Part shown: positions 1 to 17,017 of the stretch, piece by piece
Position numbering within the stretch: position 1 is the first letter of the stretch
How the letters are laid out: every line of letters starts with the position of its first letter
IMG/VR virus record: IMGVR_UViG_2721755645_000001
DNA length: 17,017 nucleotides
Origin: a virus
Taxonomy: Monodnaviria; Loebvirae; Hofneiviricota; Faserviricetes; Tubulavirales; Inoviridae
Direction: 5' to 3' (one strand)
The notes under the pieces: model-generated
Database searches by the model: none
Seen by the model: only the letters and a program-made list of their open reading frames with translations
Told to the model about the DNA's origin: nothing
Position numbers and translations under genes: made by a program

Positions 1-2
1 TT

Positions 3-34
3 GGTGCGCATAATGTCAACGCGTTATGTTGAAA
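3..34. other. dif-like XerC/XerD recombination site (att) at the left prophage boundary
   Basis: GGTGCGCATAA (3..13) is identical to the XerC-binding arm of E. coli dif; a 10-bp central region TGTCAACGCG follows, then TTATGTTGAAA, which resembles the XerD arm TTATGTTAAAT with 2 mismatches. Confidence 0.6.
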
Positions 35-68
35 AGGCCGCTGCGAAAATCGAATCCCGCAGCGGCCT
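35..68 (-). terminator. Rho-independent terminator candidate downstream of the 309-aa cargo gene
   Basis: GC-rich inverted repeat GGCCGCTGCG (36..45) / CGCAGCGGCC (58..67) with a 12-nt loop; on the minus strand it is followed by TTTTC; the gene's stop is at 101. Confidence 0.5.
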
Positions 69-100
69 CTTTAGCATAACGTCATTGTGCGAACCAATAG

Positions 101-1030
101 CTACTTTTTCGTATAACTCTCTTCGCATTTAGCCAAAAACAGCAGATTAGTAGCGGTTAAATGAAGGGTATAACTCGCTAAATACTCAGGAACTTTTGTT
201 ATTTCTGCCCCTTGTCCATGTCCACCTTCTTTATTTCGAATGGTTGGAATACCACTCTCAAGTAGAATTCTTATTGAAGAAAATTGATTCTGGAGGTATT
301 CAGGTACTAAATTATTTGCCAAACAACTGTTAATTAGTTTTTTAGCTGTGTCAGTATCATTAAATTGCCAAGAATGTTTTTTATGTATGGCTTTCATTAG
401 ACTTTCAAAAGATTTGAGGCAATCATTTAAACATTCTTTATATCGCTGATGTCTATAATGCTCATGGGCGGATAAAAACTCATCGTTTGCTCCGTTATAA
501 CTCTTGTTCTTACCAAGAATCTGAAGCGTAGGCTTTACAACATCAGAATGAATGAATTGTGAGTCAACTTTAACCAACTCTCCTGACTCAAATTGATATC
601 CAAGACCTGCTTCTTTAAACCTGATATTAAGTTCTTCAATAGCATCATCAGGACTTTGCTTTACTAACCCTCTGAATTTCCACTCATTTGATCTTATATA
701 CCCGTCTATCAGTTTGAAACATATCTCAATGATATCCAAGCATTTTTCATGATCTCTCTCAGCTAGGAAATAGTCAAAAATTGCCCCGAAATTCGATTCA
801 GGATACTGTTTGAGAGAGAATACACCATATTCCTTACACAGCGTTTTATGAACGAGTCTGTAAAGCTTACTTGCTTCCGTTTCATAGTCACTATCTTCAC
901 CGATAGTATCTCTTACAATATGAACAACCTGAACACGAAATGCATTTGGTATATTCGTGTATTGGTAAACATCAGCTACTTCACCTCTTAATTTTTTTTG
1001 TCTTTTTGAAAATAATTCGAATATAGCCAA
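101..1030 (-). CDS. Hypothetical 309-aa cargo protein; possible HEPN-type C-terminal domain (R265-x5-H271); function unknown
   Basis: Long ORF with GAGGA Shine-Dalgarno 7 nt upstream of the ATG; very AT-rich (about 30-32% GC in hand-sampled stretches) compared with neighbours; C-terminal motif IRNKEGGHG; terminator hairpin downstream. Confidence 0.75.
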   Translation of the reverse strand: MAIFELFSKRQKKLRGEVADVYQYTNIPNAFRVQVVHIVRDTIGEDSDYETEASKLYRLVHKTLCKEYGVFSLKQYPESNFGAIFDYFLAERDHEKCLDIIEICFKLIDGYIRSNEWKFRGLVKQSPDDAIEELNIRFKEAGLGYQFESGELVKVDSQFIHSDVVKPTLQILGKNKSYNGANDEFLSAHEHYRHQRYKECLNDCLKSFESLMKAIHKKHSWQFNDTDTAKKLINSCLANNLVPEYLQNQFSSIRILLESGIPTIRNKEGGHGQGAEITKVPEYLASYTLHLTATNLLFLAKCEESYTKK

Positions 1031-1116
1031 TTTATAATCCTCAAAGATATGCCATTAATATGTCTGAGTTGATGAAAATCACACCGCTTTTACAGTCGTT
1101 TTCCACGGTGGAGTTA

Positions 1117-1536
1117 TCAGTAATATGAGTTTCTTCTGTGCCACCAATAAAGAAGTCCGTATCCAATGATAAGAATTCCGAAAAACATCAACGACATTCC
1201 CCAGCCAGTTCCGTACCACGAAACCATATCATCGAAAACCAACCCACCCATTTCACGTACTCCGGCAGCTTCCTTAAGAATTGGTTTGAATACCGGAATC
1301 AGAAGGGCGATCGCCAGTGGAGCACCCCAGCGAACAAGACCTGTTTCCATTTTGATCCCGAAAAAGATCCCCGCTCCGACAGCAAGCAACCAGACTACCA
1401 GGCCAGGCGCAGTTTCCAGTGCTGTTTGCCATTCAACATCGAAAGTTTTCATTAGCCAGGCAACAACTGCCAGACAGAAAGCAAATACGCCGACGACAAC
1501 CAGTTCAACGCCGCTTGTTTCGTTATTTCTACTCAT
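1117..1536 (-). CDS. Small integral membrane protein, about 4 predicted TM helices, unknown function
   Basis: 139 aa with four hydrophobic stretches (LVVVGVFAFCLAVVAWLM, LVVWLLAVGAGIFFGI, PLAIALLIPVF, LMFFGILIIGYGLLYWW); about 52% GC in sampled stretches; AAGGA upstream of the ATG. Confidence 0.65.
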   Translation of the reverse strand: MSRNNETSGVELVVVGVFAFCLAVVAWLMKTFDVEWQTALETAPGLVVWLLAVGAGIFFGIKMETGLVRWGAPLAIALLIPVFKPILKEAAGVREMGGLVFDDMVSWYGTGWGMSLMFFGILIIGYGLLYWWHRRNSYY

Positions 1537-1578
1537 CCTTTTGATCCTTTTTCACTGTTCAAAATTCGCACAATAAAG

Positions 1579-1607
1579 AACGTGCAGTGTTGGTAATACT
1601 GCACGTT
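1579..1607 (-). terminator. Perfect 10-bp inverted repeat (AACGTGCAGT-N9-ACTGCACGTT); candidate terminator or attenuator after the repressor gene, or an operator
   Basis: Hairpin lies 29 nt downstream of the repressor stop (1636) on the minus strand and is followed on that strand by a T-rich tract (CTTTATTGTG). Confidence 0.4.
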
Positions 1608-1635
1608 TGTCTCATTCCTGAGACTGTTAATCCTT

Positions 1636-2082
1636 TTACTCTTCTCCAGACACCGCTTTTTTCATAAACATTTTAGTACTGTAAGTGTATGAACTTAAGG
1701 CAGAAACTTGCCTTGCGAGTGCCAGAATATCTTGTTTTTCCAGTGTCCTGATGTTCCACACGATGAAATTATGTGCGTTAGTGGTTTCTTCATCAGTATA
1801 TCCATCCGCAGAAGTGATTAGCTTCCGCTCGGTAGCTTCTTCTTTAACATCAAGAGCATAGCCATAAGCTAAGGTGTTTAAGTCTGCACCCGTAATTTTA
1901 GCTATCTGAATGATGTCACTGAATTTAGGTTCAGTTTTGCCGGACGCTATCCTGACCAGCGTACTCACGCTAATGCCAGTCTTCTCGGCCAGTTCTTCAT
2001 AAGTCGAGTGTTCCAGAATTACCTTTTTGATACGTTCTGCTCTCTGTTTGTCCGCCATAACTTCATGCTCATTGTTGCCCAT
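1636..2082 (-). CDS. XRE-family helix-turn-helix transcriptional regulator (phage repressor-like, analogous in position to RstR)
   Basis: 148 aa; N-terminal HTH-like segment YEELAEKTGISVSTLVRIASGKTEPKFSDIIQIAKITGADLNTL; divergently transcribed from the replication gene; GGAG 8 nt upstream of the ATG. Confidence 0.7.
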   Translation of the reverse strand: MGNNEHEVMADKQRAERIKKVILEHSTYEELAEKTGISVSTLVRIASGKTEPKFSDIIQIAKITGADLNTLAYGYALDVKEEATERKLITSADGYTDEETTNAHNFIVWNIRTLEKQDILALARQVSALSSYTYSTKMFMKKAVSGEE

Positions 2083-2253
2083 CTACTTGGCTCCATCTTA
2101 ACAGTGGTTTTTCAATAGTTAGATTTGATGCTCATTTCTGACAATTTAAACATTGCAAATGTATTGACTGTCAGATCTGAGCATATTACATTGTGACCAT
2201 TCAATCTGCTCACAAATGACTATTGACACATATTTTGATGGGTGTGACTACTT
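2083..2253. promoter_or_regulatory. Divergent promoter/operator region between the repressor and replication genes
   Basis: Rightward sigma70-like candidate: -35 TTGACT (2164..2169), 17-bp spacer, -10 TACATT (2187..2192). Overlapping palindromes TGACTGTCA (2165..2173) and TCAGATCTGA (2171..2180) and further TGAC repeats are candidate repressor sites. Confidence 0.45.
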
Positions 2254-3306
2254 ATGATCGACTGGTTTACCGGAATCCTGCCTTGCACACACCGACCGTT
2301 ACCGGCTGGTAGTGTCGTCAGCGTCGATGCTGACGGTGCAGTGGAGTGGGAAACAGTAAAACGGTTGACCGTTCGCGGTTCGCATGAGTCCACAATGAAA
2401 GTAAGGTCTGTTGGATCTGATGGTGAAGGTCGGGCAACACATCTCTACATTGACGGTAATCCATCAAAGTTTTTGCAAGGTCACTCTGTTATCGGTTCCG
2501 ACGATTTGCAAGGGTTGGTGTTAACAGCTTACGCCAGAATATTGGCATTACTGCATATTCCTCATGATCTACCATCCTATCGGCAGGTCATGAAAGGGCA
2601 ATTTAAGATCTCGCGCATCGATATCAATTACATGTATTCATTGTCAACATTAGAAAATGTCCGCGCATGGTTATATGCCGCAGAATTTAAAGCTAAAACT
2701 CGCCACGGTCGCGCCTGTAGTAAAGGTGGCACTGTTTACTTAGGGAAAAACTCCCGTCGTTGGAGCCTGAAATTTTATTCAAAATATGATGAGCATACAT
2801 CTGGCAAAAAAGGGCACCAGATGGCAGACGAATTCGTTAAAGCTGGTTTACTGGACTGGTCAAAAGATAAATTACGCATTGAATTAACATTAAGAACAAC
2901 TGAATTAATTGATTTGAATCTTACGCTTGGTAATAGCTGGAATATTGAGACGCCCAATAAATTATTCTCTGACTATGTAGGGAGAATAGAAATGAATCAA
3001 AATACTATATTAACTGATGAAAAAATAATTAATCTCCCAAGAAAAATACAGTCTACATATTTATTGTGGAAGCAGGGCGCGAACATGAAAGAGATGTTAC
3101 CGAAACCTACATTCTACCGACACCGTAAAGAATTACTTTCTTTCGGAATAGATATTAACTTTTATTGTGAGTCACCGGATTCTAATAACGTTGTTCCGTT
3201 GGTTCGTACTCTTGAAGCCAAACCAGCCAAAATTCCATCATGGGTTTATGAGAAAGGTTTAATTTTCGATTATAACCGTATTTCACATGCCAGTAACTGG
3301 CATTAA
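2254..3306 (+). CDS. Putative rolling-circle replication initiation protein (gene II / RstA-like)
   Basis: 350-aa ORF, first gene of the plus-strand module and divergent from the repressor, as in Ff and CTX-type phages; assignment by synteny and size only, no catalytic motif verified. Confidence 0.55.
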   Translation: MIDWFTGILPCTHRPLPAGSVVSVDADGAVEWETVKRLTVRGSHESTMKVRSVGSDGEGRATHLYIDGNPSKFLQGHSVIGSDDLQGLVLTAYARILALLHIPHDLPSYRQVMKGQFKISRIDINYMYSLSTLENVRAWLYAAEFKAKTRHGRACSKGGTVYLGKNSRRWSLKFYSKYDEHTSGKKGHQMADEFVKAGLLDWSKDKLRIELTLRTTELIDLNLTLGNSWNIETPNKLFSDYVGRIEMNQNTILTDEKIINLPRKIQSTYLLWKQGANMKEMLPKPTFYRHRKELLSFGIDINFYCESPDSNNVVPLVRTLEAKPAKIPSWVYEKGLIFDYNRISHASNWH

Positions 3307-3317
3307 AGGAGAGTGAT

Positions 3318-3635
3318 ATGTCTAATTATGGTCTTTTTGTAAAAGGTAAAATGCTTGGTGCTCGCCAGCGTAATAAGGTCAATGGTCAGGGATACTATAA
3401 TGAAATTGGTGTTGGCTTAGAGATTCCTGATGGTTTTGGCGGCACTAAGCAAGACCAGATTATTATTCGTGTATCTCAGGCTCTTGTTAATGCCGGTGTA
3501 ATGAATCAGGCAAATAATTTTATCGGTAAGTTAGTCCAGATACCTGTATATGTTCGCGTCTGGTCAATGGAGGGGAGGGAAGGAGTAACTTATAACATTT
3601 CATCAGATGGCGGCATTACTGAAATAAAAGGCTGA
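3318..3635 (+). CDS. Putative ssDNA-binding protein (gene V / RstB-like)
   Basis: 105-aa ORF directly after the replication gene; strong AAGGAGAG Shine-Dalgarno; position matches gV in Ff synteny. Confidence 0.45.
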   Translation: MSNYGLFVKGKMLGARQRNKVNGQGYYNEIGVGLEIPDGFGGTKQDQIIIRVSQALVNAGVMNQANNFIGKLVQIPVYVRVWSMEGREGVTYNISSDGGITEIKG

Positions 3636-3637
3636 TT

Positions 3638-3889
3638 ATGGATACATCAGGTTTCGATATTCAGTTTGATAATCATATTCCTGAAAATGGTTACCGTATT
3701 GAAGGTTATTTATGTAATGCGAACAATGCAAAAGAATGTCAGGCAATAATGGTACGTTCTGAACCATTTCATCAAATTGATTATTCTGCAATGGGAAATT
3801 ACTGGACATTAGGTTTTGGCTCTGTCCTGCTGCTCTGGCTTTTTTCTGTAGGTGTGGGACAGGTAATAAAGATGGTTCGTACTGCTTGA
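3638..3889 (+). CDS. Small protein with a C-terminal hydrophobic segment; possible minor coat or morphogenesis protein
   Basis: 83 aa, start 2 nt after the upstream stop; C-terminal segment WTLGFGSVLLLWLFSVGVGQVI; position corresponds to gVII/gIX in Ff order. Confidence 0.4.
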   Translation: MDTSGFDIQFDNHIPENGYRIEGYLCNANNAKECQAIMVRSEPFHQIDYSAMGNYWTLGFGSVLLLWLFSVGVGQVIKMVRTA

Positions 3890-3923
3890 ATGCGAACCTT
3901 TAAAATGTAATGGAGATAGAGTT

Positions 3924-4157
3924 ATGTTTAAAAAAATCGTTAGTTTTCTGGCTGTACCTGCATTAATGGCTGTTTCTGGCGCGACTTTCGCTGCAGAAGG
4001 AGCGGCATCAAGTGGTGTTGATTTATCGCCGCTGACGAACAGCATTGATTTCAGTACAGTTCTGGTTGCGATTATGGCCGTTGCTGCTTCACTGGTAACA
4101 CTTTATGCCGGTGTCGCTGGCGTTCGCTGGGTATTGCGTACCGTTAAATCCGCATAA
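3924..4157 (+). CDS. Major coat protein (gene VIII-like)
   Basis: 77 aa; signal peptide MFKKIVSFLAVPALMAVSGATFA with AXA-type cleavage, acidic mature N-terminus, hydrophobic core and basic C-terminus (RWVLRTVKSA); GGAGA Shine-Dalgarno; strong terminator follows. Confidence 0.75.
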   Translation: MFKKIVSFLAVPALMAVSGATFAAEGAASSGVDLSPLTNSIDFSTVLVAIMAVAASLVTLYAGVAGVRWVLRTVKSA

Positions 4158-4170
4158 ATTCATTATTCAT

Positions 4171-4195
4171 GGGCGATGCAATATCGCCCGTTTTA
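4171..4195 (+). terminator. Rho-independent terminator after the coat gene
   Basis: Stem GGGCGAT (4171..4177) / ATCGCCC (4183..4189) with a 5-nt loop, followed by GTTTTA; matches the position of the gVIII terminator in Ff phages. Confidence 0.7.
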
Positions 4196-4221
4196 CTTGA
4201 GGTTATTATGGAGATTGAATT

Positions 4222-5934
4222 ATGGAAATTGGGTTCCCTTTTATGGGGGATCGTCTCAGCTTATGTCGTTATTCTTGGGCTAAGAGGCTGACGGTTTATT
4301 CCTTTATTTTTTCCTTTCTCTGGGTTTCCTTTCCCCGATATTCATATTCATTTGTACCAGCAATTGCAGCAGTGGCTGCGCGGGCTGTTATTCCTAAAGT
4401 CGTTGGCCGGGTGCTTGTTCGTCGCTTTGCTGCCAATGATGCGATTTATACGGCATCACAGCTTACAGCAACCCGTGTTTTTGTTGGCCGCGCTGCGGCT
4501 AATGCTGCCGAATACTTGCCTGCTGCCTCATCATACAAAATGAGCGGTGTTGCAACGTGGGCGGGTATTGCTGCTGCTGTATCATCTTTTGTTCCGTCTT
4601 CTTTGAGTTCATCTGACGGCTCGGTAATGGTAATGACTAACGGTAAAAAGATTTCCGATAATTTATATGAAGTAACGTACAGTGGTCAAAGTGGTGAAAG
4701 TAAGACGATAACCGTTAATTTTGAACCACAGGAATTAAGTCCGGTAATCCTTCATGTTAGTCGTAATAATGTGGATGCGGGTTCTCCAGTTGTAGGTGTT
4801 GAAACAGGATATTCCACGCCAGATAATGCACTTTATTATTATCAGGATTCGAAAGAGCTAATTTATTACTATGGTGATAATCCAACTGAAATTGCCAGAA
4901 ATTATCTTAATGACTATAACTCGCGTACTTATACTGAAACACTAACGAATTTTGAACGCACTGTGACGAATAAAGTTGTCAACAGTAATGGAGATGTCTC
5001 CTTTACTGAACAGAATTATAAGTTTACTTATCCTTCCTCATTTTATGAAATTCCTGAGATTACACACTTGTATAGCAACCCGGCCGCATCTTCATTTCCC
5101 GCAGGTATTCCCATGTATGAAAATGTAGCAGGGCTTCCCATGTATTACAGCGTTGCTTATTTAACAGCAGGAAAGCAATATCAGTATCACAACACGCCTT
5201 GTAAAACGACTAATCAGTCAAATGGTGGATATTCGACGATTTGCGCCGTTCCTGAAAAAGAGGATTACACCACAAAAGATATTGATGAAAAGAGTGAGCT
5301 TACTATCTGGACCAATACCAAATATAAAGCCATGACGGAAGTACTGGAGGCCGGAAATATTGAGTCCATGATTGATTATCTGGAGTATCTTGATAGTGTT
5401 AGTGTATCGCCAGCACTTCTTGCCGACATGATTAACGAGCTGTGGTCTGAAGCTGCCGTTAATGCCGATTATAACGGCTTACCGTTTAAAGAGGTTTCAC
5501 CGGCTGAAGTAACTTCTGCGATGTCGGAACTTAGGCTATCTCCAACGTTATTAGATATGCTTTCACCTGTATCTGACAGTGCAGGGGCTGACGTCAATAT
5601 TGATATTACCATTAATAACAACTCAGGATCTGACACTGGAAATAATGGCAATATAGATTTGGGAGAAGATCCCGGTGTAAAAGAGCCTGAGCTTGAAGAA
5701 ACGCCAACGGCAAGAGATATTTTAACGCCAATTATTAACTTGTTGCCTTTTACAAACGAATTTAACATCGGCTCTCGTTCAGCATCCTGCCCCGTTGTTG
5801 AATTCAGCGTGTTTAATCACCAGTACAGAATTGACTCCCATTGTCCGTTAATTGAGCAGAACAGAAGCGCCGTAGAAACCATATTTCTGATTATATGGGG
5901 ATTTGTTGCGCTCCGTATTATTCTTAGTGCCTAA
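4222..5934 (+). CDS. Minor coat / adsorption protein (gene III-like)
   Basis: 570 aa; signal-like hydrophobic N-terminal segment, Gly/Ser/Asn-rich linker (NNNSGSDTGNNGN) and C-terminal membrane anchor (IFLIIWGFVALRIILSA); the true start may be the internal ATG at 4243. Confidence 0.65.
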   Translation: MEIGFPFMGDRLSLCRYSWAKRLTVYSFIFSFLWVSFPRYSYSFVPAIAAVAARAVIPKVVGRVLVRRFAANDAIYTASQLTATRVFVGRAAANAAEYLPAASSYKMSGVATWAGIAAAVSSFVPSSLSSSDGSVMVMTNGKKISDNLYEVTYSGQSGESKTITVNFEPQELSPVILHVSRNNVDAGSPVVGVETGYSTPDNALYYYQDSKELIYYYGDNPTEIARNYLNDYNSRTYTETLTNFERTVTNKVVNSNGDVSFTEQNYKFTYPSSFYEIPEITHLYSNPAASSFPAGIPMYENVAGLPMYYSVAYLTAGKQYQYHNTPCKTTNQSNGGYSTICAVPEKEDYTTKDIDEKSELTIWTNTKYKAMTEVLEAGNIESMIDYLEYLDSVSVSPALLADMINELWSEAAVNADYNGLPFKEVSPAEVTSAMSELRLSPTLLDMLSPVSDSAGADVNIDITINNNSGSDTGNNGNIDLGEDPGVKEPELEETPTARDILTPIINLLPFTNEFNIGSRSASCPVVEFSVFNHQYRIDSHCPLIEQNRSAVETIFLIIWGFVALRIILSA

Positions 5935-5946
5935 AGGAGTGCAACT

Positions 5947-6147
5947 ATGTTTGGGATTCTGATTAGTGCATTAAATACTTTGTTAGGTTTTGTATTCCGG
6001 TCATTGATTATTAAATTCGTCGTATTCTTTGCGCTGTATTTTGTAGTCCAGGGCTTCGTTGATATACGGGGAAAAAATAATGAAAAAGATTTTACTCGCA
6101 TTAACGCTACTATTTTCTTCATGTGCTTTCGCAGGGTCAGAGCTTGA
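5947..6147 (+). pseudogene. Truncated gene VI-like ORF; 3' end removed by the 1183-bp deletion in copy 1
   Basis: First 38 codons identical to the 95-aa ORF at 13681..13968, then the frame diverges after the deletion junction (6062|6063) and runs into the gIV region. Confidence 0.7.
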
Positions 6148-7324
6148 ATTAAATAAAGTCAAGCTACCGGAGGCTATTTCTCTTATTTACAGTGAGGTGC
6201 TTAAAGTCCCGTATATGCTAGATCCACAGCTTGTTAATGATGAACGAATGATTACATTCAGGTTAACATCTGATATTGATGAACGGGAATTTGTAACCCG
6301 TTATCTTGGCAATATGAACATTCGAATATGGACGAAAAAGGGTGTTGATTTTATCGCGCCCTATACGCCGAAAGAGCCGGTTAAGCCACGTTATACATGG
6401 ACTTATACGCCTCAGTACCGTTCTGTTGCCTACCTGTCTGATATTCTTGGCGGCTACGTTTCAGGCTCCTTCAATAACAGTGGAGCCGTGATTTCTGACG
6501 ATTCGCTAAAAGGTTCATCAGGGGCAAGCAACTACATCAATCGAACCGGTGATATTCTGGTTTATTATGGTACGAAAGAGGATATCGCCATCCTGAAAAC
6601 ACTGGTCACTTCGCTGGATACGATGAGTGATGAAGTGGTTGTTTCTGGTTATGTTTTTGAGGTTCAGACCTCGCAGTCTGACGGCTCCGGCATTCTTTTA
6701 GCGGCTAAAATTCTGTCTGATAAATTCAATATTTCAGTTGGTGCTGCCGGACTGGATAATTTTATCAATATTCGAACCGGCTCCATTGATGCCATTTTCA
6801 ATCTGCTGAAAACCGACAGTCGTTTTACTGTTGTCAGTGCGCCACGACTGCGGGTAAAAAATAATGCCTCAGCGTCTTTTTCAGTCGGCTCTGATGTGCC
6901 AGTACTGGGCAGTGTTACGGTGAATAACAATACGACAACGCAATCCGTTGAATATCGTTCCAGCGGTGTTTTGTTTAACGTGACGCCATCAATCAAAAGT
7001 CGGACAATGGATCTCAAGATTCAGCAGCAGCTTTCCAACTTTGTGACCACTGAAACCGGCGTCAATAACTCGCCAACCCTTATCAAGCGTGATGTAACAA
7101 CCGAAGTCAGCCTTGCAGATGGTGATATTATTTTACTTGGTGGCCTTGCTGAACAGAAAGACAGTAAGGCCAGTTCCGGCTGGAGCTTCTTCGGTTCCCG
7201 TACCAGTGAAAGCAACAAGACTGATATTATGGTGATGCTTCAGGTCAGAAAGGTTGACCGGAGCAGGGCGACGCCCCGCAGCGCCGCGAGGAGCGGTGAA
7301 CTGTTCCGGGACAACCTGAACTGA
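6080..7324 (+). CDS. Secretin (gene IV-like outer-membrane export channel), copy 1
   Basis: 414 aa from the ATG at 6080; signal peptide MKKILLALTLLFSSCAFA; C-terminal secretin-like motif DGDIILLGGL. The ORF-track start at 6059 is an in-frame ATG created by the deletion junction. Confidence 0.8.
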   Translation: MKKILLALTLLFSSCAFAGSELELNKVKLPEAISLIYSEVLKVPYMLDPQLVNDERMITFRLTSDIDEREFVTRYLGNMNIRIWTKKGVDFIAPYTPKEPVKPRYTWTYTPQYRSVAYLSDILGGYVSGSFNNSGAVISDDSLKGSSGASNYINRTGDILVYYGTKEDIAILKTLVTSLDTMSDEVVVSGYVFEVQTSQSDGSGILLAAKILSDKFNISVGAAGLDNFINIRTGSIDAIFNLLKTDSRFTVVSAPRLRVKNNASASFSVGSDVPVLGSVTVNNNTTTQSVEYRSSGVLFNVTPSIKSRTMDLKIQQQLSNFVTTETGVNNSPTLIKRDVTTEVSLADGDIILLGGLAEQKDSKASSGWSFFGSRTSESNKTDIMVMLQVRKVDRSRATPRSAARSGELFRDNLN

Positions 7325-7736
7325 TTGTATGGATTTTTATTATGGCGTTAACTTTTATGGGGTATGAACAGTACGACATCTTTTTGTTGCTGTCCGGGGT
7401 TGGCCAAGCCGTACAGTTTCCATTTTCAGCGTTATGGCTGATTCGGCGCGGCAGCATTCATCGGGCCTTATCATGGAAAAATTCATGACACATCAGGAGC
7501 ATGGTGATTGGTGATGGCACTGAAGAAGTGGTGTTTGATTCTCGTGTATCAGGTACAGATTTACCAACTAACTGGATGAACAGGCCTGATTGGTGAGGTC
7601 AGGCCGTTCACTTACTGCTGACAGACATTTGATTCTGATTCGTTTGGAGAAACGGATGATTTTGAATCACTGTCGATAGTAGCCAGTTGACGGCCAGTGT
7701 CAACGATTCCCGCCAGATTCTGCCATCCTTACCATT

Positions 7737-7802: not shown

Positions 7803-7834
7803 CTTTAGCATAACGTCATTGTGCGAACCAATAG

Positions 7835-9270: not shown

Positions 9271-9312
9271 CCTTTTGATCCTTTTTCACTGTTCAAAATT
9301 CGCACAATAAAG

Positions 9313-9341
9313 AACGTGCAGTGTTGGTAATACTGCACGTT
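9313..9341 (-). terminator. Inverted repeat, candidate terminator or operator (copy 2)
   Basis: Same sequence as 1579..1607. Confidence 0.4.
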
Positions 9342-9369
9342 TGTCTCATTCCTGAGACTGTTAATCCTT

Positions 9370-9816
9370 TTACTCTTCTCCAGACACCGCTTTTTTCATA
9401 AACATTTTAGTACTGTAAGTGTATGAACTTAAGGCAGAAACTTGCCTTGCGAGTGCCAGAATATCTTGTTTTTCCAGTGTCCTGATGTTCCACACGATGA
9501 AATTATGTGCGTTAGTGGTTTCTTCATCAGTATATCCATCCGCAGAAGTGATTAGCTTCCGCTCGGTAGCTTCTTCTTTAACATCAAGAGCATAGCCATA
9601 AGCTAAGGTGTTTAAGTCTGCACCCGTAATTTTAGCTATCTGAATGATGTCACTGAATTTAGGTTCAGTTTTGCCGGACGCTATCCTGACCAGCGTACTC
9701 ACGCTAATGCCAGTCTTCTCGGCCAGTTCTTCATAAGTCGAGTGTTCCAGAATTACCTTTTTGATACGTTCTGCTCTCTGTTTGTCCGCCATAACTTCAT
9801 GCTCATTGTTGCCCAT
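9370..9816 (-). CDS. XRE-family HTH transcriptional regulator (copy 2)
   Basis: Identical translation to 1636..2082. Confidence 0.7.
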   Translation of the reverse strand: MGNNEHEVMADKQRAERIKKVILEHSTYEELAEKTGISVSTLVRIASGKTEPKFSDIIQIAKITGADLNTLAYGYALDVKEEATERKLITSADGYTDEETTNAHNFIVWNIRTLEKQDILALARQVSALSSYTYSTKMFMKKAVSGEE

Positions 9817-9987
9817 CTACTTGGCTCCATCTTAACAGTGGTTTTTCAATAGTTAGATTTGATGCTCATTTCTGACAATTTAAACATTGCAAATGTATTG
9901 ACTGTCAGATCTGAGCATATTACATTGTGACCATTCAATCTGCTCACAAATGACTATTGACACATATTTTGATGGGTGTGACTACTT
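9817..9987. promoter_or_regulatory. Divergent promoter/operator region (copy 2)
   Basis: Same sequence as 2083..2253. Confidence 0.45.
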
Positions 9988-11040
9988 ATGATCGACTGGT
10001 TTACCGGAATCCTGCCTTGCACACACCGACCGTTACCGGCTGGTAGTGTCGTCAGCGTCGATGCTGACGGTGCAGTGGAGTGGGAAACAGTAAAACGGTT
10101 GACCGTTCGCGGTTCGCATGAGTCCACAATGAAAGTAAGGTCTGTTGGATCTGATGGTGAAGGTCGGGCAACACATCTCTACATTGACGGTAATCCATCA
10201 AAGTTTTTGCAAGGTCACTCTGTTATCGGTTCCGACGATTTGCAAGGGTTGGTGTTAACAGCTTACGCCAGAATATTGGCATTACTGCATATTCCTCATG
10301 ATCTACCATCCTATCGGCAGGTCATGAAAGGGCAATTTAAGATCTCGCGCATCGATATCAATTACATGTATTCATTGTCAACATTAGAAAATGTCCGCGC
10401 ATGGTTATATGCCGCAGAATTTAAAGCTAAAACTCGCCACGGTCGCGCCTGTAGTAAAGGTGGCACTGTTTACTTAGGGAAAAACTCCCGTCGTTGGAGC
10501 CTGAAATTTTATTCAAAATATGATGAGCATACATCTGGCAAAAAAGGGCACCAGATGGCAGACGAATTCGTTAAAGCTGGTTTACTGGACTGGTCAAAAG
10601 ATAAATTACGCATTGAATTAACATTAAGAACAACTGAATTAATTGATTTGAATCTTACGCTTGGTAATAGCTGGAATATTGAGACGCCCAATAAATTATT
10701 CTCTGACTATGTAGGGAGAATAGAAATGAATCAAAATACTATATTAACTGATGAAAAAATAATTAATCTCCCAAGAAAAATACAGTCTACATATTTATTG
10801 TGGAAGCAGGGCGCGAACATGAAAGAGATGTTACCGAAACCTACATTCTACCGACACCGTAAAGAATTACTTTCTTTCGGAATAGATATTAACTTTTATT
10901 GTGAGTCACCGGATTCTAATAACGTTGTTCCGTTGGTTCGTACTCTTGAAGCCAAACCAGCCAAAATTCCATCATGGGTTTATGAGAAAGGTTTAATTTT
11001 CGATTATAACCGTATTTCACATGCCAGTAACTGGCATTAA
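9988..11040 (+). CDS. Putative replication initiation protein (copy 2)
   Basis: Identical translation to 2254..3306. Confidence 0.55.
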   Translation: MIDWFTGILPCTHRPLPAGSVVSVDADGAVEWETVKRLTVRGSHESTMKVRSVGSDGEGRATHLYIDGNPSKFLQGHSVIGSDDLQGLVLTAYARILALLHIPHDLPSYRQVMKGQFKISRIDINYMYSLSTLENVRAWLYAAEFKAKTRHGRACSKGGTVYLGKNSRRWSLKFYSKYDEHTSGKKGHQMADEFVKAGLLDWSKDKLRIELTLRTTELIDLNLTLGNSWNIETPNKLFSDYVGRIEMNQNTILTDEKIINLPRKIQSTYLLWKQGANMKEMLPKPTFYRHRKELLSFGIDINFYCESPDSNNVVPLVRTLEAKPAKIPSWVYEKGLIFDYNRISHASNWH

Positions 11041-11051
11041 AGGAGAGTGAT

Positions 11052-11369
11052 ATGTCTAATTATGGTCTTTTTGTAAAAGGTAAAATGCTTGGTGCTCGCC
11101 AGCGTAATAAGGTCAATGGTCAGGGATACTATAATGAAATTGGTGTTGGCTTAGAGATTCCTGATGGTTTTGGCGGCACTAAGCAAGACCAGATTATTAT
11201 TCGTGTATCTCAGGCTCTTGTTAATGCCGGTGTAATGAATCAGGCAAATAATTTTATCGGTAAGTTAGTCCAGATACCTGTATATGTTCGCGTCTGGTCA
11301 ATGGAGGGGAGGGAAGGAGTAACTTATAACATTTCATCAGATGGCGGCATTACTGAAATAAAAGGCTGA
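11052..11369 (+). CDS. Putative ssDNA-binding protein (copy 2)
   Basis: Identical translation to 3318..3635. Confidence 0.45.
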   Translation: MSNYGLFVKGKMLGARQRNKVNGQGYYNEIGVGLEIPDGFGGTKQDQIIIRVSQALVNAGVMNQANNFIGKLVQIPVYVRVWSMEGREGVTYNISSDGGITEIKG

Positions 11370-11371
11370 TT

Positions 11372-11623
11372 ATGGATACATCAGGTTTCGATATTCAGTT
11401 TGATAATCATATTCCTGAAAATGGTTACCGTATTGAAGGTTATTTATGTAATGCGAACAATGCAAAAGAATGTCAGGCAATAATGGTACGTTCTGAACCA
11501 TTTCATCAAATTGATTATTCTGCAATGGGAAATTACTGGACATTAGGTTTTGGCTCTGTCCTGCTGCTCTGGCTTTTTTCTGTAGGTGTGGGACAGGTAA
11601 TAAAGATGGTTCGTACTGCTTGA
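11372..11623 (+). CDS. Small hydrophobic protein, possible minor coat protein (copy 2)
   Basis: Identical translation to 3638..3889. Confidence 0.4.
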   Translation: MDTSGFDIQFDNHIPENGYRIEGYLCNANNAKECQAIMVRSEPFHQIDYSAMGNYWTLGFGSVLLLWLFSVGVGQVIKMVRTA

Positions 11624-11657
11624 ATGCGAACCTTTAAAATGTAATGGAGATAGAGTT

Positions 11658-11891
11658 ATGTTTAAAAAAATCGTTAGTTTTCTGGCTGTACCTGCATTAA
11701 TGGCTGTTTCTGGCGCGACTTTCGCTGCAGAAGGAGCGGCATCAAGTGGTGTTGATTTATCGCCGCTGACGAACAGCATTGATTTCAGTACAGTTCTGGT
11801 TGCGATTATGGCCGTTGCTGCTTCACTGGTAACACTTTATGCCGGTGTCGCTGGCGTTCGCTGGGTATTGCGTACCGTTAAATCCGCATAA
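11658..11891 (+). CDS. Major coat protein (copy 2)
   Basis: Identical translation to 3924..4157. Confidence 0.75.
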   Translation: MFKKIVSFLAVPALMAVSGATFAAEGAASSGVDLSPLTNSIDFSTVLVAIMAVAASLVTLYAGVAGVRWVLRTVKSA

Positions 11892-11904
11892 ATTCATTAT
11901 TCAT

Positions 11905-11929
11905 GGGCGATGCAATATCGCCCGTTTTA
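11905..11929 (+). terminator. Rho-independent terminator after the coat gene (copy 2)
   Basis: Same sequence as 4171..4195. Confidence 0.7.
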
Positions 11930-11955
11930 CTTGAGGTTATTATGGAGATTGAATT

Positions 11956-13668
11956 ATGGAAATTGGGTTCCCTTTTATGGGGGATCGTCTCAGCTTATGT
12001 CGTTATTCTTGGGCTAAGAGGCTGACGGTTTATTCCTTTATTTTTTCCTTTCTCTGGGTTTCCTTTCCCCGATATTCATATTCATTTGTACCAGCAATTG
12101 CAGCAGTGGCTGCGCGGGCTGTTATTCCTAAAGTCGTTGGCCGGGTGCTTGTTCGTCGCTTTGCTGCCAATGATGCGATTTATACGGCATCACAGCTTAC
12201 AGCAACCCGTGTTTTTGTTGGCCGCGCTGCGGCTAATGCTGCCGAATACTTGCCTGCTGCCTCATCATACAAAATGAGCGGTGTTGCAACGTGGGCGGGT
12301 ATTGCTGCTGCTGTATCATCTTTTGTTCCGTCTTCTTTGAGTTCATCTGACGGCTCGGTAATGGTAATGACTAACGGTAAAAAGATTTCCGATAATTTAT
12401 ATGAAGTAACGTACAGTGGTCAAAGTGGTGAAAGTAAGACGATAACCGTTAATTTTGAACCACAGGAATTAAGTCCGGTAATCCTTCATGTTAGTCGTAA
12501 TAATGTGGATGCGGGTTCTCCAGTTGTAGGTGTTGAAACAGGATATTCCACGCCAGATAATGCACTTTATTATTATCAGGATTCGAAAGAGCTAATTTAT
12601 TACTATGGTGATAATCCAACTGAAATTGCCAGAAATTATCTTAATGACTATAACTCGCGTACTTATACTGAAACACTAACGAATTTTGAACGCACTGTGA
12701 CGAATAAAGTTGTCAACAGTAATGGAGATGTCTCCTTTACTGAACAGAATTATAAGTTTACTTATCCTTCCTCATTTTATGAAATTCCTGAGATTACACA
12801 CTTGTATAGCAACCCGGCCGCATCTTCATTTCCCGCAGGTATTCCCATGTATGAAAATGTAGCAGGGCTTCCCATGTATTACAGCGTTGCTTATTTAACA
12901 GCAGGAAAGCAATATCAGTATCACAACACGCCTTGTAAAACGACTAATCAGTCAAATGGTGGATATTCGACGATTTGCGCCGTTCCTGAAAAAGAGGATT
13001 ACACCACAAAAGATATTGATGAAAAGAGTGAGCTTACTATCTGGACCAATACCAAATATAAAGCCATGACGGAAGTACTGGAGGCCGGAAATATTGAGTC
13101 CATGATTGATTATCTGGAGTATCTTGATAGTGTTAGTGTATCGCCAGCACTTCTTGCCGACATGATTAACGAGCTGTGGTCTGAAGCTGCCGTTAATGCC
13201 GATTATAACGGCTTACCGTTTAAAGAGGTTTCACCGGCTGAAGTAACTTCTGCGATGTCGGAACTTAGGCTATCTCCAACGTTATTAGATATGCTTTCAC
13301 CTGTATCTGACAGTGCAGGGGCTGACGTCAATATTGATATTACCATTAATAACAACTCAGGATCTGACACTGGAAATAATGGCAATATAGATTTGGGAGA
13401 AGATCCCGGTGTAAAAGAGCCTGAGCTTGAAGAAACGCCAACGGCAAGAGATATTTTAACGCCAATTATTAACTTGTTGCCTTTTACAAACGAATTTAAC
13501 ATCGGCTCTCGTTCAGCATCCTGCCCCGTTGTTGAATTCAGCGTGTTTAATCACCAGTACAGAATTGACTCCCATTGTCCGTTAATTGAGCAGAACAGAA
13601 GCGCCGTAGAAACCATATTTCTGATTATATGGGGATTTGTTGCGCTCCGTATTATTCTTAGTGCCTAA
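11956..13668 (+). CDS. Minor coat / adsorption protein (copy 2)
   Basis: Identical translation to 4222..5934. Confidence 0.65.
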   Translation: MEIGFPFMGDRLSLCRYSWAKRLTVYSFIFSFLWVSFPRYSYSFVPAIAAVAARAVIPKVVGRVLVRRFAANDAIYTASQLTATRVFVGRAAANAAEYLPAASSYKMSGVATWAGIAAAVSSFVPSSLSSSDGSVMVMTNGKKISDNLYEVTYSGQSGESKTITVNFEPQELSPVILHVSRNNVDAGSPVVGVETGYSTPDNALYYYQDSKELIYYYGDNPTEIARNYLNDYNSRTYTETLTNFERTVTNKVVNSNGDVSFTEQNYKFTYPSSFYEIPEITHLYSNPAASSFPAGIPMYENVAGLPMYYSVAYLTAGKQYQYHNTPCKTTNQSNGGYSTICAVPEKEDYTTKDIDEKSELTIWTNTKYKAMTEVLEAGNIESMIDYLEYLDSVSVSPALLADMINELWSEAAVNADYNGLPFKEVSPAEVTSAMSELRLSPTLLDMLSPVSDSAGADVNIDITINNNSGSDTGNNGNIDLGEDPGVKEPELEETPTARDILTPIINLLPFTNEFNIGSRSASCPVVEFSVFNHQYRIDSHCPLIEQNRSAVETIFLIIWGFVALRIILSA

Positions 13669-13680
13669 AGGAGTGCAACT

Positions 13681-13968
13681 ATGTTTGGGATTCTGATTAG
13701 TGCATTAAATACTTTGTTAGGTTTTGTATTCCGGTCATTGATTATTAAATTCGTCGTATTCTTTGCGCTGTATTTTGTAGTCCAGGGCTTCGTTGAAATC
13801 CTTGTTGAGTTACTGCCAGATTCAAGCAATCTCTCATCGCTGTTTGCCAATTTATCAGACGGATTCTGGTACTTCATTAACCTGAGTAAATTACCACAGG
13901 GGATTAGTATGATTATCTCCGCAATGGCTACTCGTTTTATTATTCGACGTATTCCTGTTATAGGGTGA
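13681..13968 (+). CDS. Minor coat protein (gene VI-like)
   Basis: 95-aa hydrophobic protein with AAGGAG Shine-Dalgarno, lying between the gIII-like and gI-like genes as in Ff phages. Confidence 0.6.
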   Translation: MFGILISALNTLLGFVFRSLIIKFVVFFALYFVVQGFVEILVELLPDSSNLSSLFANLSDGFWYFINLSKLPQGISMIISAMATRFIIRRIPVIG

Positions 13969-13971
13969 GTT

Positions 13972-14997
13972 ATGGCTATTTCTGCATATATTGGCATACC
14001 CGGCTCAGGAAAAAGTTATGAAGCCGTTTGCAATGTCATTATTCCGGCATTTACCAGCGGCCGGAGAGTTGTGACGAACATTTATGGTTTACAAAAAGAT
14101 AAAATCACCGAACGTTATCCTGATGCAACGGGAGAAATTATTGTTGTGGATAATGATGATGTGCTTAAAGCAGATTTCTTTCCTTTTAAAGGTGGGGAAG
14201 GGAGCTTTTGCCAGTTTGGTGATTTAATTGTTATTGATGAAGCATGGCGAATCTTCGGTAGCGATAAGGATATGACGGCTGAGAAGAAATCATTTATTGC
14301 TGAACATCGTCATTTTACGCACCCTGAAACGGGTATTAGCTGTGATTTGGTTATTGTAAATCAGTCACTTTCTAATATTGCTCGCTTTCTGAAAGACAAA
14401 ATAGAAACAACTTACCGGATGCGCAAGCTGAAAGCGTTGGGCCTGAATAATCATTACTGCATTGACGTATATTCAGGCCACAAAATCTATAAAAGCAACC
14501 TCGTCACCAGTTATCGCAATAAATATAACCCTGATATTTTTGAACTTTACAAAAGTTATGAAGGAAATAACGGTAATGAAAAGCAGACAGATAAACGCCA
14601 GAGCATCTGGAATTCTGGCAAAGTCAGGTTCTTTCTTGTGCTTTTTCCATTGATGTTTATCGGGTCAGGCTGGCTGATTTACTCATTTTTCAGCACGTTT
14701 GGCCGAAGCGATCCCTCGCCAGATTTGACTACAACAGATGTACGTGATGCGGCCATGTTTCGTTCTTCCGCTGCTACTCCAGCACCAGATACTCCCTCAG
14801 AACCAGCTGAACCGCCACTTTCAACCGAGTGGCGTATATCAGGGAGAATGACCAGTGAAGGCAGGGCGTTTGTGATTCTTGTTAATGGTGCCGGTGTTTT
14901 GCGTGCCGTTCCTGCATCCAGTTTTAATTACAAAGGGATGTTGATGAGCGGAATTATTGATGGTGAGCGTGTGACGCTTTATACGGGGAAAAAATAA
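13972..14997 (+). CDS. Assembly ATPase (gene I / Zot-like)
   Basis: 341 aa; Walker A GIPGSGKSY at the N-terminus, Walker B-like LIVIDEAW, C-terminal TM segment (FFLVLFPLMFIGSGWLIYSFF); stop overlaps the gIV start (TAATG). Present only in copy 2. Confidence 0.8.
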   Translation: MAISAYIGIPGSGKSYEAVCNVIIPAFTSGRRVVTNIYGLQKDKITERYPDATGEIIVVDNDDVLKADFFPFKGGEGSFCQFGDLIVIDEAWRIFGSDKDMTAEKKSFIAEHRHFTHPETGISCDLVIVNQSLSNIARFLKDKIETTYRMRKLKALGLNNHYCIDVYSGHKIYKSNLVTSYRNKYNPDIFELYKSYEGNNGNEKQTDKRQSIWNSGKVRFFLVLFPLMFIGSGWLIYSFFSTFGRSDPSPDLTTTDVRDAAMFRSSAATPAPDTPSEPAEPPLSTEWRISGRMTSEGRAFVILVNGAGVLRAVPASSFNYKGMLMSGIIDGERVTLYTGKK

Positions 14998-16241
14998 TGA
15001 AAAAGATTTTACTCGCATTAACGCTACTATTTTCTTCATGTGCTTTCGCAGGGTCAGAGCTTGAATTAAATAAAGTCAAGCTACCGGAGGCTATTTCTCT
15101 TATTTACAGTGAGGTGCTTAAAGTCCCGTATATGCTAGATCCACAGCTTGTTAATGATGAACGAATGATTACATTCAGGTTAACATCTGATATTGATGAA
15201 CGGGAATTTGTAACCCGTTATCTTGGCAATATGAACATTCGAATATGGACGAAAAAGGGTGTTGATTTTATCGCGCCCTATACGCCGAAAGAGCCGGTTA
15301 AGCCACGTTATACATGGACTTATACGCCTCAGTACCGTTCTGTTGCCTACCTGTCTGATATTCTTGGCGGCTACGTTTCAGGCTCCTTCAATAACAGTGG
15401 AGCCGTGATTTCTGACGATTCGCTAAAAGGTTCATCAGGGGCAAGCAACTACATCAATCGAACCGGTGATATTCTGGTTTATTATGGTACGAAAGAGGAT
15501 ATCGCCATCCTGAAAACACTGGTCACTTCGCTGGATACGATGAGTGATGAAGTGGTTGTTTCTGGTTATGTTTTTGAGGTTCAGACCTCGCAGTCTGACG
15601 GCTCCGGCATTCTTTTAGCGGCTAAAATTCTGTCTGATAAATTCAATATTTCAGTTGGTGCTGCCGGACTGGATAATTTTATCAATATTCGAACCGGCTC
15701 CATTGATGCCATTTTCAATCTGCTGAAAACCGACAGTCGTTTTACTGTTGTCAGTGCGCCACGACTGCGGGTAAAAAATAATGCCTCAGCGTCTTTTTCA
15801 GTCGGCTCTGATGTGCCAGTACTGGGCAGTGTTACGGTGAATAACAATACGACAACGCAATCCGTTGAATATCGTTCCAGCGGTGTTTTGTTTAACGTGA
15901 CGCCATCAATCAAAAGTCGGACAATGGATCTCAAGATTCAGCAGCAGCTTTCCAACTTTGTGACCACTGAAACCGGCGTCAATAACTCGCCAACCCTTAT
16001 CAAGCGTGATGTAACAACCGAAGTCAGCCTTGCAGATGGTGATATTATTTTACTTGGTGGCCTTGCTGAACAGAAAGACAGTAAGGCCAGTTCCGGCTGG
16101 AGCTTCTTCGGTTCCCGTACCAGTGAAAGCAACAAGACTGATATTATGGTGATGCTTCAGGTCAGAAAGGTTGACCGGAGCAGGGCGACGCCCCGCAGCG
16201 CCGCGAGGAGCGGTGAACTGTTCCGGGACAACCTGAACTGA
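14997..16241 (+). CDS. Secretin (gene IV-like), copy 2
   Basis: Same 414-aa protein; GGGGA Shine-Dalgarno; start overlaps the gene I stop. Confidence 0.85.
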   Translation: MKKILLALTLLFSSCAFAGSELELNKVKLPEAISLIYSEVLKVPYMLDPQLVNDERMITFRLTSDIDEREFVTRYLGNMNIRIWTKKGVDFIAPYTPKEPVKPRYTWTYTPQYRSVAYLSDILGGYVSGSFNNSGAVISDDSLKGSSGASNYINRTGDILVYYGTKEDIAILKTLVTSLDTMSDEVVVSGYVFEVQTSQSDGSGILLAAKILSDKFNISVGAAGLDNFINIRTGSIDAIFNLLKTDSRFTVVSAPRLRVKNNASASFSVGSDVPVLGSVTVNNNTTTQSVEYRSSGVLFNVTPSIKSRTMDLKIQQQLSNFVTTETGVNNSPTLIKRDVTTEVSLADGDIILLGGLAEQKDSKASSGWSFFGSRTSESNKTDIMVMLQVRKVDRSRATPRSAARSGELFRDNLN

Positions 16242-16329
16242 TTGTATGGATTTTTATTATGGCGTTAACTTTTATGGGGTATGAACAGTACGACATCTTC
16301 TAGGTATTCAGTTACTTAGAGGATTTATT

Positions 16330-16578
16330 ATGTCTGTAAAAAATAAGGCGCGTGACCGACTTCCCGGTGGCCGCCTTAAGTCTTATCGTCGTGTAGGTTC
16401 ACATTTTGCCAGTTGTGCCAGATGGTTTGATAAATCGCCGTCCTGGTATCGCAATATGATGATGACCAGGCCTGAGCGCCGTGAAGTCAGAAGGCTTCTC
16501 AATCAGGTAATGCGTGGTCATGATGCTGACGGCATTGCTTTTCCGGTCAGTCATCGTCCGTTTGTTTATTGGTGGTGA
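16330..16578 (+). CDS. Hypothetical small basic protein (82 aa, Arg-rich), copy 2 only
   Basis: ORF with GAGGA Shine-Dalgarno 6 nt upstream; lies inside a 373-bp segment (about 16300..16672) that is absent from copy 1; no recognisable motif. Confidence 0.5.
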   Translation: MSVKNKARDRLPGGRLKSYRRVGSHFASCARWFDKSPSWYRNMMMTRPERREVRRLLNQVMRGHDADGIAFPVSHRPFVYWW

Positions 16579-17017
16579 ATTTCGTACGCACGAAATTTCA
16601 CGCATAAACACCAGACAAAAAATCGTTAACTGTCTGTTTTGAAAGATAACGCCGGTCAGTGACAAAACTTGTTTTGTTGCTGTCCGGGGTTGGCCAAGCC
16701 GTACAGTTTCCATTTTCAGCGTTATGGCTGATTCGGCGCGGCAGCATTCATCGGGCCTTATCATGGAAAAATTCATGACACATCAGGAGCATGGTGATGG
16801 CACTGAAGAAGTGGTGTTTGATTCTCGTGTATCAGGTACAGATTTACCAACTAACTGGATGAACAGGCCTGATTGGTGAGGTCAGGCCGTTCACTTACTG
16901 CTGACAGACATTTGATTCTGATTCGTTTGGAGAAACGGATGATTTTGAATCACTGTCGATAGTAGCCAGTTGACGGCCAGTGTCAACGATTCCCGCCAGA
17001 TTCTGCCATCCTTACCA

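Follow-up and report, generated by a model that had tools for sequence, protein, structure and literature searches.

How do two copies of one filamentous prophage come to lie side by side without a single substitution between them, one complete and the other deprived of its assembly ATPase, and how much of this arrangement belongs to the bacterium rather than to the assembly in which it was deposited? The question is raised by a stretch of 17,017 nucleotides of inoviral DNA (IMG/VR record IMGVR_UViG_2721755645_000001), the whole of which we call the window. It is 100% identical to the chromosome of Escherichia coli NGF-1 (NZ_CP016007.1), a mouse strain widely used as an engineered gut chassis, across the circular junction of that record; joining both ends of the record recovers the window completely. 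With a probability of roughly 0.6, we read it as an array at the dif site of an inovirus of the CUS-1/YpfΦ/NC-Ino type, a real array with a real deleted copy. The two large deletions that set the copies apart probably reflect real DNA molecules in NGF-1, while their placement, phase and copy number in the record are a reconstruction from short-read contigs.

Two head-to-tail units beside dif

BLAST of the two halves and a repeat finder both divide the window into exactly two units placed head to tail, as a first-pass annotation had proposed, with the junction at 7734/7735. The units align as three collinear blocks: 1-6062 with 7735-13796, 6063-7382 with 14980-16299, and 7382-7734 with 16672-17017, the last save for one 7-nt gap. 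The full nucleotide alignment of the copies, which that annotation had put forward as a check, contains 0 substitutions. Unit 1 measures 7,734 bp and unit 2 measures 9,283 bp, and the gap of 1,549 bp is the sum of 1183 and 373 minus 7: a 1183-bp and a 373-bp segment are found only in unit 2 (coordinates in Table 1), and only in unit 1 does TGGTGAT occur twice in direct succession, without mismatch (7502-7508 and 7509-7515; TGGTGATTGGTGAT). These differences had been listed beforehand, and the numbers were exact. It had also been said that all shared open reading frames (ORFs) translate identically; this holds, trivially, because the units carry no substitutions, except that the pVI-like ORF is not intact in unit 1. 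The observation that the window ends coincide with unit boundaries is equally correct, since the window extends from attL up to, but not including, attR and the regenerated dif.

The chromosomal surroundings identify the integration site. The hipA gene lies upstream of the window, and a canonical dif (GGTGCGCATAATGTATATTATGTTAAAT) follows directly after position 17017; dif is thus intact in NGF-1, regenerated at the 3' end of the array. Both units begin with TTGGTGCGCATAATGT joined to CAACGCGTTATGTTGAAAAG, and the 16-nt core TTGGTGCGCATAATGT of this attL-type site is common to dif. According to its predicted fold, the (+) strand at the unit junction is a folded attP(+) of the CTXφ type (ΔG -35.6 kcal/mol, z -5.5; 0 of 200 shuffles fold as well), and BLAST detects an imperfect palindrome of 60 nt at 22-81. 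No integrase or recombinase domain was found in any of the ORFs scanned against Pfam and PHROGs. Together with the regenerated dif, the folded attP(+) and the missing integrase bear out the view that this is a filamentous prophage, tandem as deposited, that integrates through Xer and dif, and make it one of the CTXφ type. A duplex attP of the VGJφ type was also considered and is disfavoured: the inverted sites fold as a hairpin, and the literature places YpfΦ and CUS-1Φ in the CTXφ-type class (Das 2014), in which integration is irreversible and catalysed by XerC and virion DNA is produced by rolling-circle replication across tandem copies.

A near-identical core, the canonical gene order and a dif site with regenerated dif all point to membership in the CUS-1/YpfΦ/NC-Ino group. 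Over 7,502 nt, from the repressor as far as the ORFs that adjoin attR, the phage has 99.6% nucleotide identity to YpfΦ of Yersinia pestis NCTC5923, and it shares with YpfΦ and with CUS-1 of E. coli O18:K1:H7 the gene order, the integration at dif with dif regenerated on the 3' side and, as deposited, the tandem copies. It departs from YpfΦ in the left arm, on the side of attL (unit position 111-1555), where an AbiJ-like gene and a 139-aa ORF take the place of the unrelated YPO2271/2272; YpfΦ is moreover longer by about 92 nt around unit position 9056. CUS-1 and YpfΦ likewise differ from each other only in the left arm on the attL side, according to a review of YpfΦ. NC-Ino of E. coli NC101 (PLoS Pathog 2026) is 99.8% identical to unit 2, has the same left arm and occupies the same site, in flanks that are 100% identical to those of NGF-1 over 3 kb and 11 kb. 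That paper lists NC-Ino as a single prophage of 9,335 bp. In the NC101 genome we find two identical full copies of 9,268 bp, which differ from unit 2 by three single-nucleotide polymorphisms and a 15-nt indel, all in zot. A megablast of unit 2 against deposited phage genomes returned nothing, CUS-1 and YpfΦ not being separate records in that collection.

Tandem arrays had been described as a known feature of Xer-integrating filamentous phages, and for this phage they are the rule. About 100-117 of 5,426 complete E. coli genomes carry it, with a median of two copies; besides the pair in NC101, there are three identical copies in CUVET21-PYO5, four copies in FDAARGOS_1251 and at least four in FEX669. 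YpfΦ is also found in tandem in Y. pestis, and its review reports 2-4 tandem copies, with two predominant, as well as episomal forms. Copies that differ within one array have been seen too. Shapiro & Putonti 2020 wrote of tandem dif prophages that their copies 'are not always identical', and pointed out that they usually go unresolved in Illumina assemblies. The UPΦ phages and the tandem triple of ECONIH2 that they described are, like the NGF-1 phage, enterobacterial inoviruses of dif whose copies are not always identical. However, only genes II and V of UPΦ are related to YpfΦ, according to the same authors, and the heterogeneity of ECONIH2 lies in accessory ORFs, whereas unit 1 of NGF-1 has instead lost an assembly gene. 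A heterogeneous tandem array at dif is an already known kind, to which NGF-1 adds one more probable example. In the literature searched, no deleted copy of YpfΦ or CUS-1 is described.

What the deleted copy has lost

Unit 1 is devoid of all of Zot/pI and of the C-terminal part of pVI. Its pVI-like ORF (5947-6147, 66 aa) breaks off after codon 38, continues in another frame and is annotated as a pseudogene. The 1183-bp deletion stops 18 nt before the ATG of the secretin gene, the ribosome-binding site (RBS) of which is retained, and the 373-bp deletion takes out an 82-aa ORF cleanly along with its RBS. What unit 1 retains is the repressor, pII and pV genes, attP, a candidate replication origin (discussed below) and the coat, pIII-like and secretin genes. 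In YpfΦ, disruption of YPO2279, part of the secretion module, abolishes particle production according to the review, and we read YPO2279 as the pI homologue. Because Zot/pI is missing, and because that disruption abolishes YpfΦ particles, unit 1 should depend on a helper for its assembly. By analogy, it could be complemented in trans by unit 2, which on sequence comparison is the common, complete form of the phage.

Does this make unit 1 a satellite? The first-pass annotation had suggested the coexistence of a helper phage and a defective, satellite-like derivative, comparable to the CTXφ/RS1 arrays of Vibrio cholerae. The first half of this suggestion is plausible, a copy without Zot/pI being a defective genome beside a potential helper, but the likeness to RS1 does not hold. 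CTXφ does resemble the NGF-1 phage in its folded attP(+) hairpin, its use of the host XerCD, its lack of an integrase and its tandem arrays, and the resemblance may extend, by analogy, to rolling-circle replication across adjacent copies and to the complementation of defective elements by a neighbouring prophage. However, the two phages are unrelated in sequence, and unit 1 is unlike RS1 in content. That unit 1 is an RS1-like satellite living off the full phage, and not a deletion derivative that arose once, we find scarcely credible. It does possess the repressor, pII, pV, attP and the candidate origin, it does sit beside a tandem helper, and a CTXφ model would make it the exported genome. 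Yet its coat, pIII and secretin genes are still present, whereas RS1 is without the morphogenesis block in its entirety; RS1 has the antirepressor gene rstC to itself, whereas unit 1, the 7-bp duplication aside, contains nothing that unit 2 lacks; the two units differ by 0 substitutions; and the unit-1 junctions, which in a transmissible lineage would recur in many strains, were found nowhere else in the collections described next. A miniphage of the Ff type, that is, a defective interfering genome, was considered as well and does not match: such a genome retains origin and packaging signal but little coding capacity, whereas only 1,549 of 9,283 nt are missing from unit 1.

To the best of our searches, the deleted copy is private to NGF-1. 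We probed the three unit-1 junctions (1183-bp, 373-bp and 7-bp, the last two with 44-nt queries) in the 5,426 complete E. coli genomes, and each was found in one genome, the NGF-1 record itself; the 373-bp segment, for its part, is present in 117 genomes. The junction of the 1183-bp deletion is absent from IMG/VR and from JGI metagenome contigs, and that of the 373-bp deletion from IMG/VR, where the wild-type breakpoint, used as a positive control, was recovered in 16 contigs. Four ORFs spanning unit-1 junctions were also looked up and none is on record, a result that is uninformative.

All four differences between unit 2 and NC101 fall inside the 1183-bp segment, in the C-terminal half of zot (window 14556-14931: T14556C, a repeat-like 15-nt indel at 14775-14789, T14886C and C14931T), so unit 1 is equally identical to the NC101 phage and to unit 2 and either could be its parent. 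The zot allele of NGF-1 is present in 69 genomes, including UTI89 and NU14. Either unit 2 is a mosaic, with an NC-Ino backbone and a CUS-1-type zot, or the zot allele of NC-Ino is the derived one. Rapid deletion after a duplication, as had been proposed, is indistinguishable from the integration of an already deleted genome, and is to that extent unproven. Engineering of the deletions in a chassis strain was considered and rejected, since the junctions carry no scar or foreign sequence and the strain sequenced was the isolate.

A comparable copy exists in another genome. In FDAARGOS_1251 the fourth, dif-proximal copy is reduced to 6,678 bp (38880-45557 of the extracted locus) by two blunt internal deletions of 1081 and 1509 bp (in the coordinates of its own unit), which leave a 101-nt island between them. 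They have removed the end of pIII, pVI, most of Zot and the secretin, with 0-nt microhomology at both deletions. As in NGF-1, the same phage at the same site has thus suffered two blunt deletions in the pIII/pVI/pI/pIV block beside full copies; the breakpoints are different, the secretin is lost in addition, and the deleted copy lies on the side of dif and not on that of hipA. Because this copy was independently deleted in the same gene block, blunt and multiple deletions of morphogenesis genes recur in this phage.

Other arrays carry defects in every copy. Each of the three identical copies of CUVET21-PYO5 is annotated with an internal stop in pII, and the copies of FEX669, at least four, share one 252-bp deletion in the secretin gene, with 4-nt microhomology. 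These arrays may have expanded by unequal crossing-over or by gene conversion, with no functional phage involved; otherwise the mutations must have reached all copies once the arrays were in place.

How the NGF-1 record was put together

According to its genome paper, NGF-1 was sequenced solely with Illumina MiSeq 2x250 reads (about 22x coverage). SPAdes 3.7.1 --careful gave a set of 64 contigs, later brought down to 51, which were joined with Projector2, with Ragout, by hand via 'identical segments' where contigs ended, and with some PCR. The raw reads are held in BioProject PRJNA380756, and a search of literature and databases found no long-read resequencing of the strain. Several points consequently weigh against an array exactly as deposited. 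No source read could span a perfect repeat of 7.7-9.3 kb and, because short reads cannot span the repeats, copy number, order and phase in NGF-1 are unproven. All unit-1 junctions are unique to this record (and absent from IMG/VR and JGI contigs, as searched), and the nearest sister strain, NC101, has two full copies. The record is linearised inside the array and has a private 657-bp deletion 380 nt past dif, both of them possible signs of finishing problems. Also, three other architectures share the 128-, 250- and 600-nt content of the record exactly: a phase swap of the 1183-bp deletion, a full prophage with a circular deleted episome, and an 1183-deleted prophage with a circular episome. 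A swapped unit order or an added third copy, on the other hand, can be told from the record at spans of at least 250 nt. To these points must be added, for the export model discussed below, that the origin assignment consists of a 41-nt similarity and a fold, known from sequence alone.

The linearisation point lies at window 16883/16884, within the array and 134 nt short of its right end; from there to where the sequence common to the phage tail and the att core stops is exactly 150 nt. We examined whether this point is a unitig boundary at k=127; it does not coincide with one. As for the 657-bp deletion, it is clean, has 1-nt microhomology, lies to the right of dif in an acetylxylan-esterase pseudogene and is found in NGF-1 only; the segment is kept in NC101 (about 21995-22651 of the extracted locus), FDAARGOS_1251 and CUVET21-PYO5. 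Counting this one, the NGF-1 record has three clean deletions clustered around dif, which could stem from real instability near the terminus or from a finishing problem.

The smallest of the differences between the units proves the most telling about finishing. We rebuilt the de Bruijn graph of the locus at k=127, 99, 77 and 55, the first being the largest k that SPAdes uses for 250-nt reads. Only at k=127 does the 127-nt stretch 7382-7508 form one k-mer vertex, entered by two edges and left by two, and it is on the final base of the 253-nt unitig across the 373-bp deletion that the 7-bp duplication begins; with k set to 99, 77 or 55, the 7-bp site and the 373-bp junction occupy different vertices. 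Because its start coincides with the end of this unitig, the 7-bp duplication is probably a stitching artefact. Most likely it is a cut-and-paste slip, in which the last 7 nt of the 253-nt junction contig would have been pasted again with the next piece. An independent event would fall exactly one k-mer from the junction with a chance of about 2 in 7,734; the 127-nt spacing may still be such a coincidence. An assembly artefact had been named beforehand as the outcome that would overturn the structural differences between the copies. For the 7-bp change it is the probable outcome, but its position at k=127 says nothing about the two large deletions. A 'variant' of 7 bp lying exactly one k-mer from a junction betrays finishing all the same, and it is a caution that, in a 'complete genome' finished from short reads, an array of tandem prophages put together by hand may pass for an established one.

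How far could finishing have gone? The array as written could be a construct of it altogether: NGF-1 would have one or more full-length copies on its chromosome, and deletion junctions from defective episomes or from a subpopulation of cells would have been threaded into a second copy so as to leave no contig over. We take this seriously and nonetheless find it unlikely. It would agree with short reads as the sole data and with the manual and reference-guided joining of 51 contigs, with the two full copies that NC101 has between identical flanks, with the origin of the NGF-1 record inside the array, and with the 7-bp change on the k=127 vertex, which indicates manual or graph handling at that spot. 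A full prophage and a circular deleted episome have, as said, the content of the record at 128, 250 and 600 nt, and episomal forms of the phage are documented. Indeed, a 9,565-bp circular 'untypable plasmid' of E. coli TUM14759 (NZ_CP128883.1) is a complete phage genome, in all probability an episomal replicative form that was recorded as a replicon of its own. However, since arrays of this phage normally hold two copies, a second one on the chromosome would be no surprise, and FDAARGOS_1251 has a deleted copy on its chromosome. Moreover, the authors of the NGF-1 genome list no 7.7-kb circular element among its plasmids, and a defective episome surviving the graph cleaning of SPAdes would need a high copy number, supplied pII and stable maintenance.

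It is very improbable, finally, that the deletion junctions are spurious, arising from chimeric reads or blunt contig misjoins, and that the true locus is an identical full pair as in NC101. The privacy of all junctions to one record, their 0-1 nt microhomology, similar to a blunt join, the third private clean deletion 380 nt from dif and the low coverage of about 22x are all compatible with such errors. But two identical full copies create no graph branch inside the phage, and thus give no cause for contig ends at 6062/6063 or 7382/7383. Nor could the boundaries of the 1183-bp segment come from graph bubbles between two zot alleles, a possibility that we rejected: such bubbles are expected at about unit-2 positions 6696-7323, and not at 6063-7245. 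The same blunt style of deletion is also seen in FDAARGOS_1251, which is a different assembly, and both NGF-1 deletions respect gene boundaries, one keeping the secretin RBS and the other removing the 82-aa ORF with its RBS. We therefore retain a real array with a real deleted copy as the preferred reading.

Replication origin, export and gene content

Which genome would such an array export? A 41-nt element marking the left boundary of the core conserved with YpfΦ is 90% identical (E 7e-10) to the intergenic region of phage I2-2, the closest phage in the deposited collection at the protein level (its pII is 58% identical). The element is predicted to fold into hairpins of 13 bp and 6 bp (ΔG -16.2 kcal/mol, z -5.0), and a motif search found the Ff nick-site motif absent. 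We propose it as a candidate (+) origin for pII, seemingly without prior annotation as far as we could find. At unit position about 1600, it is upstream of both large deletions.

Following the literature on CTXφ and YpfΦ, the host XerCD would integrate the folded single-stranded phage DNA at dif and regenerate dif in doing so, and tandem arrays would be built by repeated integration or by recombination. According to its review, YpfΦ often enters between copies already present and not solely at the 3' end, in which it differs from CTXφ. Rolling-circle replication by pII, running from one copy's origin to that of its neighbour, would then release phage DNA without excision. Unit 1, as a deletion derivative, would be incapable of self-assembly and would receive pI and pVI in trans from unit 2. 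With the deleted copy placed before the full one, as deposited, the circle released would be a defective genome of 7,734 nt, because the candidate origin is upstream of both deletions and provided that the deposited order is right. Taken to its end, with a real order and with the origin as the nick site, this model would turn unit 2, as the last copy before dif, into a locked helper that is not exported, and NGF-1 would shed only defective particles; we consider this improbable. If it were true, then together with FDAARGOS_1251 and with the arrays that carry pII nonsense mutations or secretin deletions, it would speak for the recurrent production and fixation in dif arrays of defective derivatives, possibly interfering or domesticating. 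Were the order confirmed, NGF-1 would offer a natural test of origin-to-origin DNA export by phages of the YpfΦ/CUS-1 type, as in CTXφ. Users of the NGF-1 chassis may also want to know whether the strain sheds filamentous phage.

Unit 2 carries the full inovirus gene set in canonical order according to Pfam and PHROGs: repressor, pII, pV, coat, pIII, pVI, pI/Zot and secretin (Table 1). On the minus strand are the AbiJ-like cargo gene, the 139-aa ORF and the helix-turn-helix (HTH) repressor. In a scan of species-representative genomes, the pII of unit 2 has 99% amino-acid identity to that of Y. pestis.

Table 1. Coordinates of the two prophage units, their sites, genes and junctions in the 17,017-nt window (window numbering; features of the unit junction are listed under unit 2).
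Feature	Unit 1	Unit 2	Strand	Basis
Unit 1, deleted prophage copy, hipA side	1-7734		+	0 substitutions against unit 2; hipA flank directly upstream
Unit 2, full-length copy, adjoining dif		7735-17017	+	99.8% at 100% coverage in NC101 and others
attL-type hybrid site, GGTGCGCATAATGT joined to CAACGCGTTATGTTGAAAAG	3-35	7737-7769	+	identical site at unit junction
attP(+), predicted forked hairpin, two inverted dif-like half-sites, central bulge	1-98	7734-7832	+	predicted fold; same sequence in both
Accessory cargo gene, AbiJ_NTD4 + DUF7014 (STM4504/CBY_0614 family)	101-1030	7835-8764	-	domain match; PADLOC PDC-S32, 4.5e-10
139-aa ORF, function unknown	1117-1536	8851-9270	-	phrog_4174; annotated 'hypothetical protein'
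Candidate pII (+)-strand origin, 41-nt element	1578-1617	9312-9351	+	similarity to I2-2 intergenic region; fold
HTH repressor, RstR/YPO2273 position	1636-2082	9370-9816	-	domain/PHROG match; YpfΦ review
Replication initiator pII	2254-3306	9988-11040	+	Phage_CRI 1e-73; G2P_X_C 3e-34
Single-stranded DNA-binding protein pV	3318-3635	11052-11369	+	Putative_G5P 1e-52
Small membrane protein	3638-3889	11372-11623	+	
Major coat protein	3924-4157	11658-11891	+	Phage_Coat_B; phrog_2186, virion structural protein
pIII-like adsorption protein (annotated start)	4372-5934	12106-13668	+	annotation; phrog_3942, 9e-251; gene order
pVI-like minor coat protein (DUF2523), 95 aa, intact only in unit 2		13681-13968	+	domain; PHROG
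1183-bp segment missing from unit 1	junction 6062/6063	13797-14979	+	0-nt microhomology
Zot/pI assembly ATPase, unit 2 only		13972-14997	+	Zot 2e-26; phrog_197, 9e-94
Secretin pIV, intact in both	6080-7324 (RBS kept)	14997-16241	+	Secretin 1.5e-24; phrog_1012
373-bp segment missing from unit 1	junction 7382/7383	16300-16672	+	1-nt microhomology
82-aa basic ORF, unit 2 only		16330-16578	+	inside 373-bp segment
127-nt stretch 7382-7508, then second TGGTGAT 7509-7515	7382-7515		+	k=127 graph; 1/5,426 genomes

Judging by its domains, the AbiJ-like protein may be an anti-phage cargo carried on a filamentous prophage; its PADLOC match to PDC-S32 is weak. The 139-aa ORF reads as a putative membrane protein from its hydrophobic translation. 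No Pfam or PHROG family could be assigned to the 82-aa ORF, the position of which matches that of YPO2280a/YPO2281, ORFs without known function on the attR side of YpfΦ. A scan of the window against Rfam gave no matches.

Traces of the phage also appear outside E. coli and Y. pestis. In a draft genome of Klebsiella spallanzanii SB6411, a rearranged double copy adjoins dif (6168-14125 of the extracted locus) with no att site between its parts; it runs from pII to pIII, then again from pII to the coat gene, which is joined to a secretin fragment and the tail. This looks like a deletion across a former unit junction. Contigs in metagenome bins labelled Aerococcus sp. and Candidatus Nanosynbacter sp. 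encode pII at 96% and 86% identity, respectively, and the contig of the latter also has dif sites of enterobacterial type; both are most likely misbinned enterobacterial DNA.

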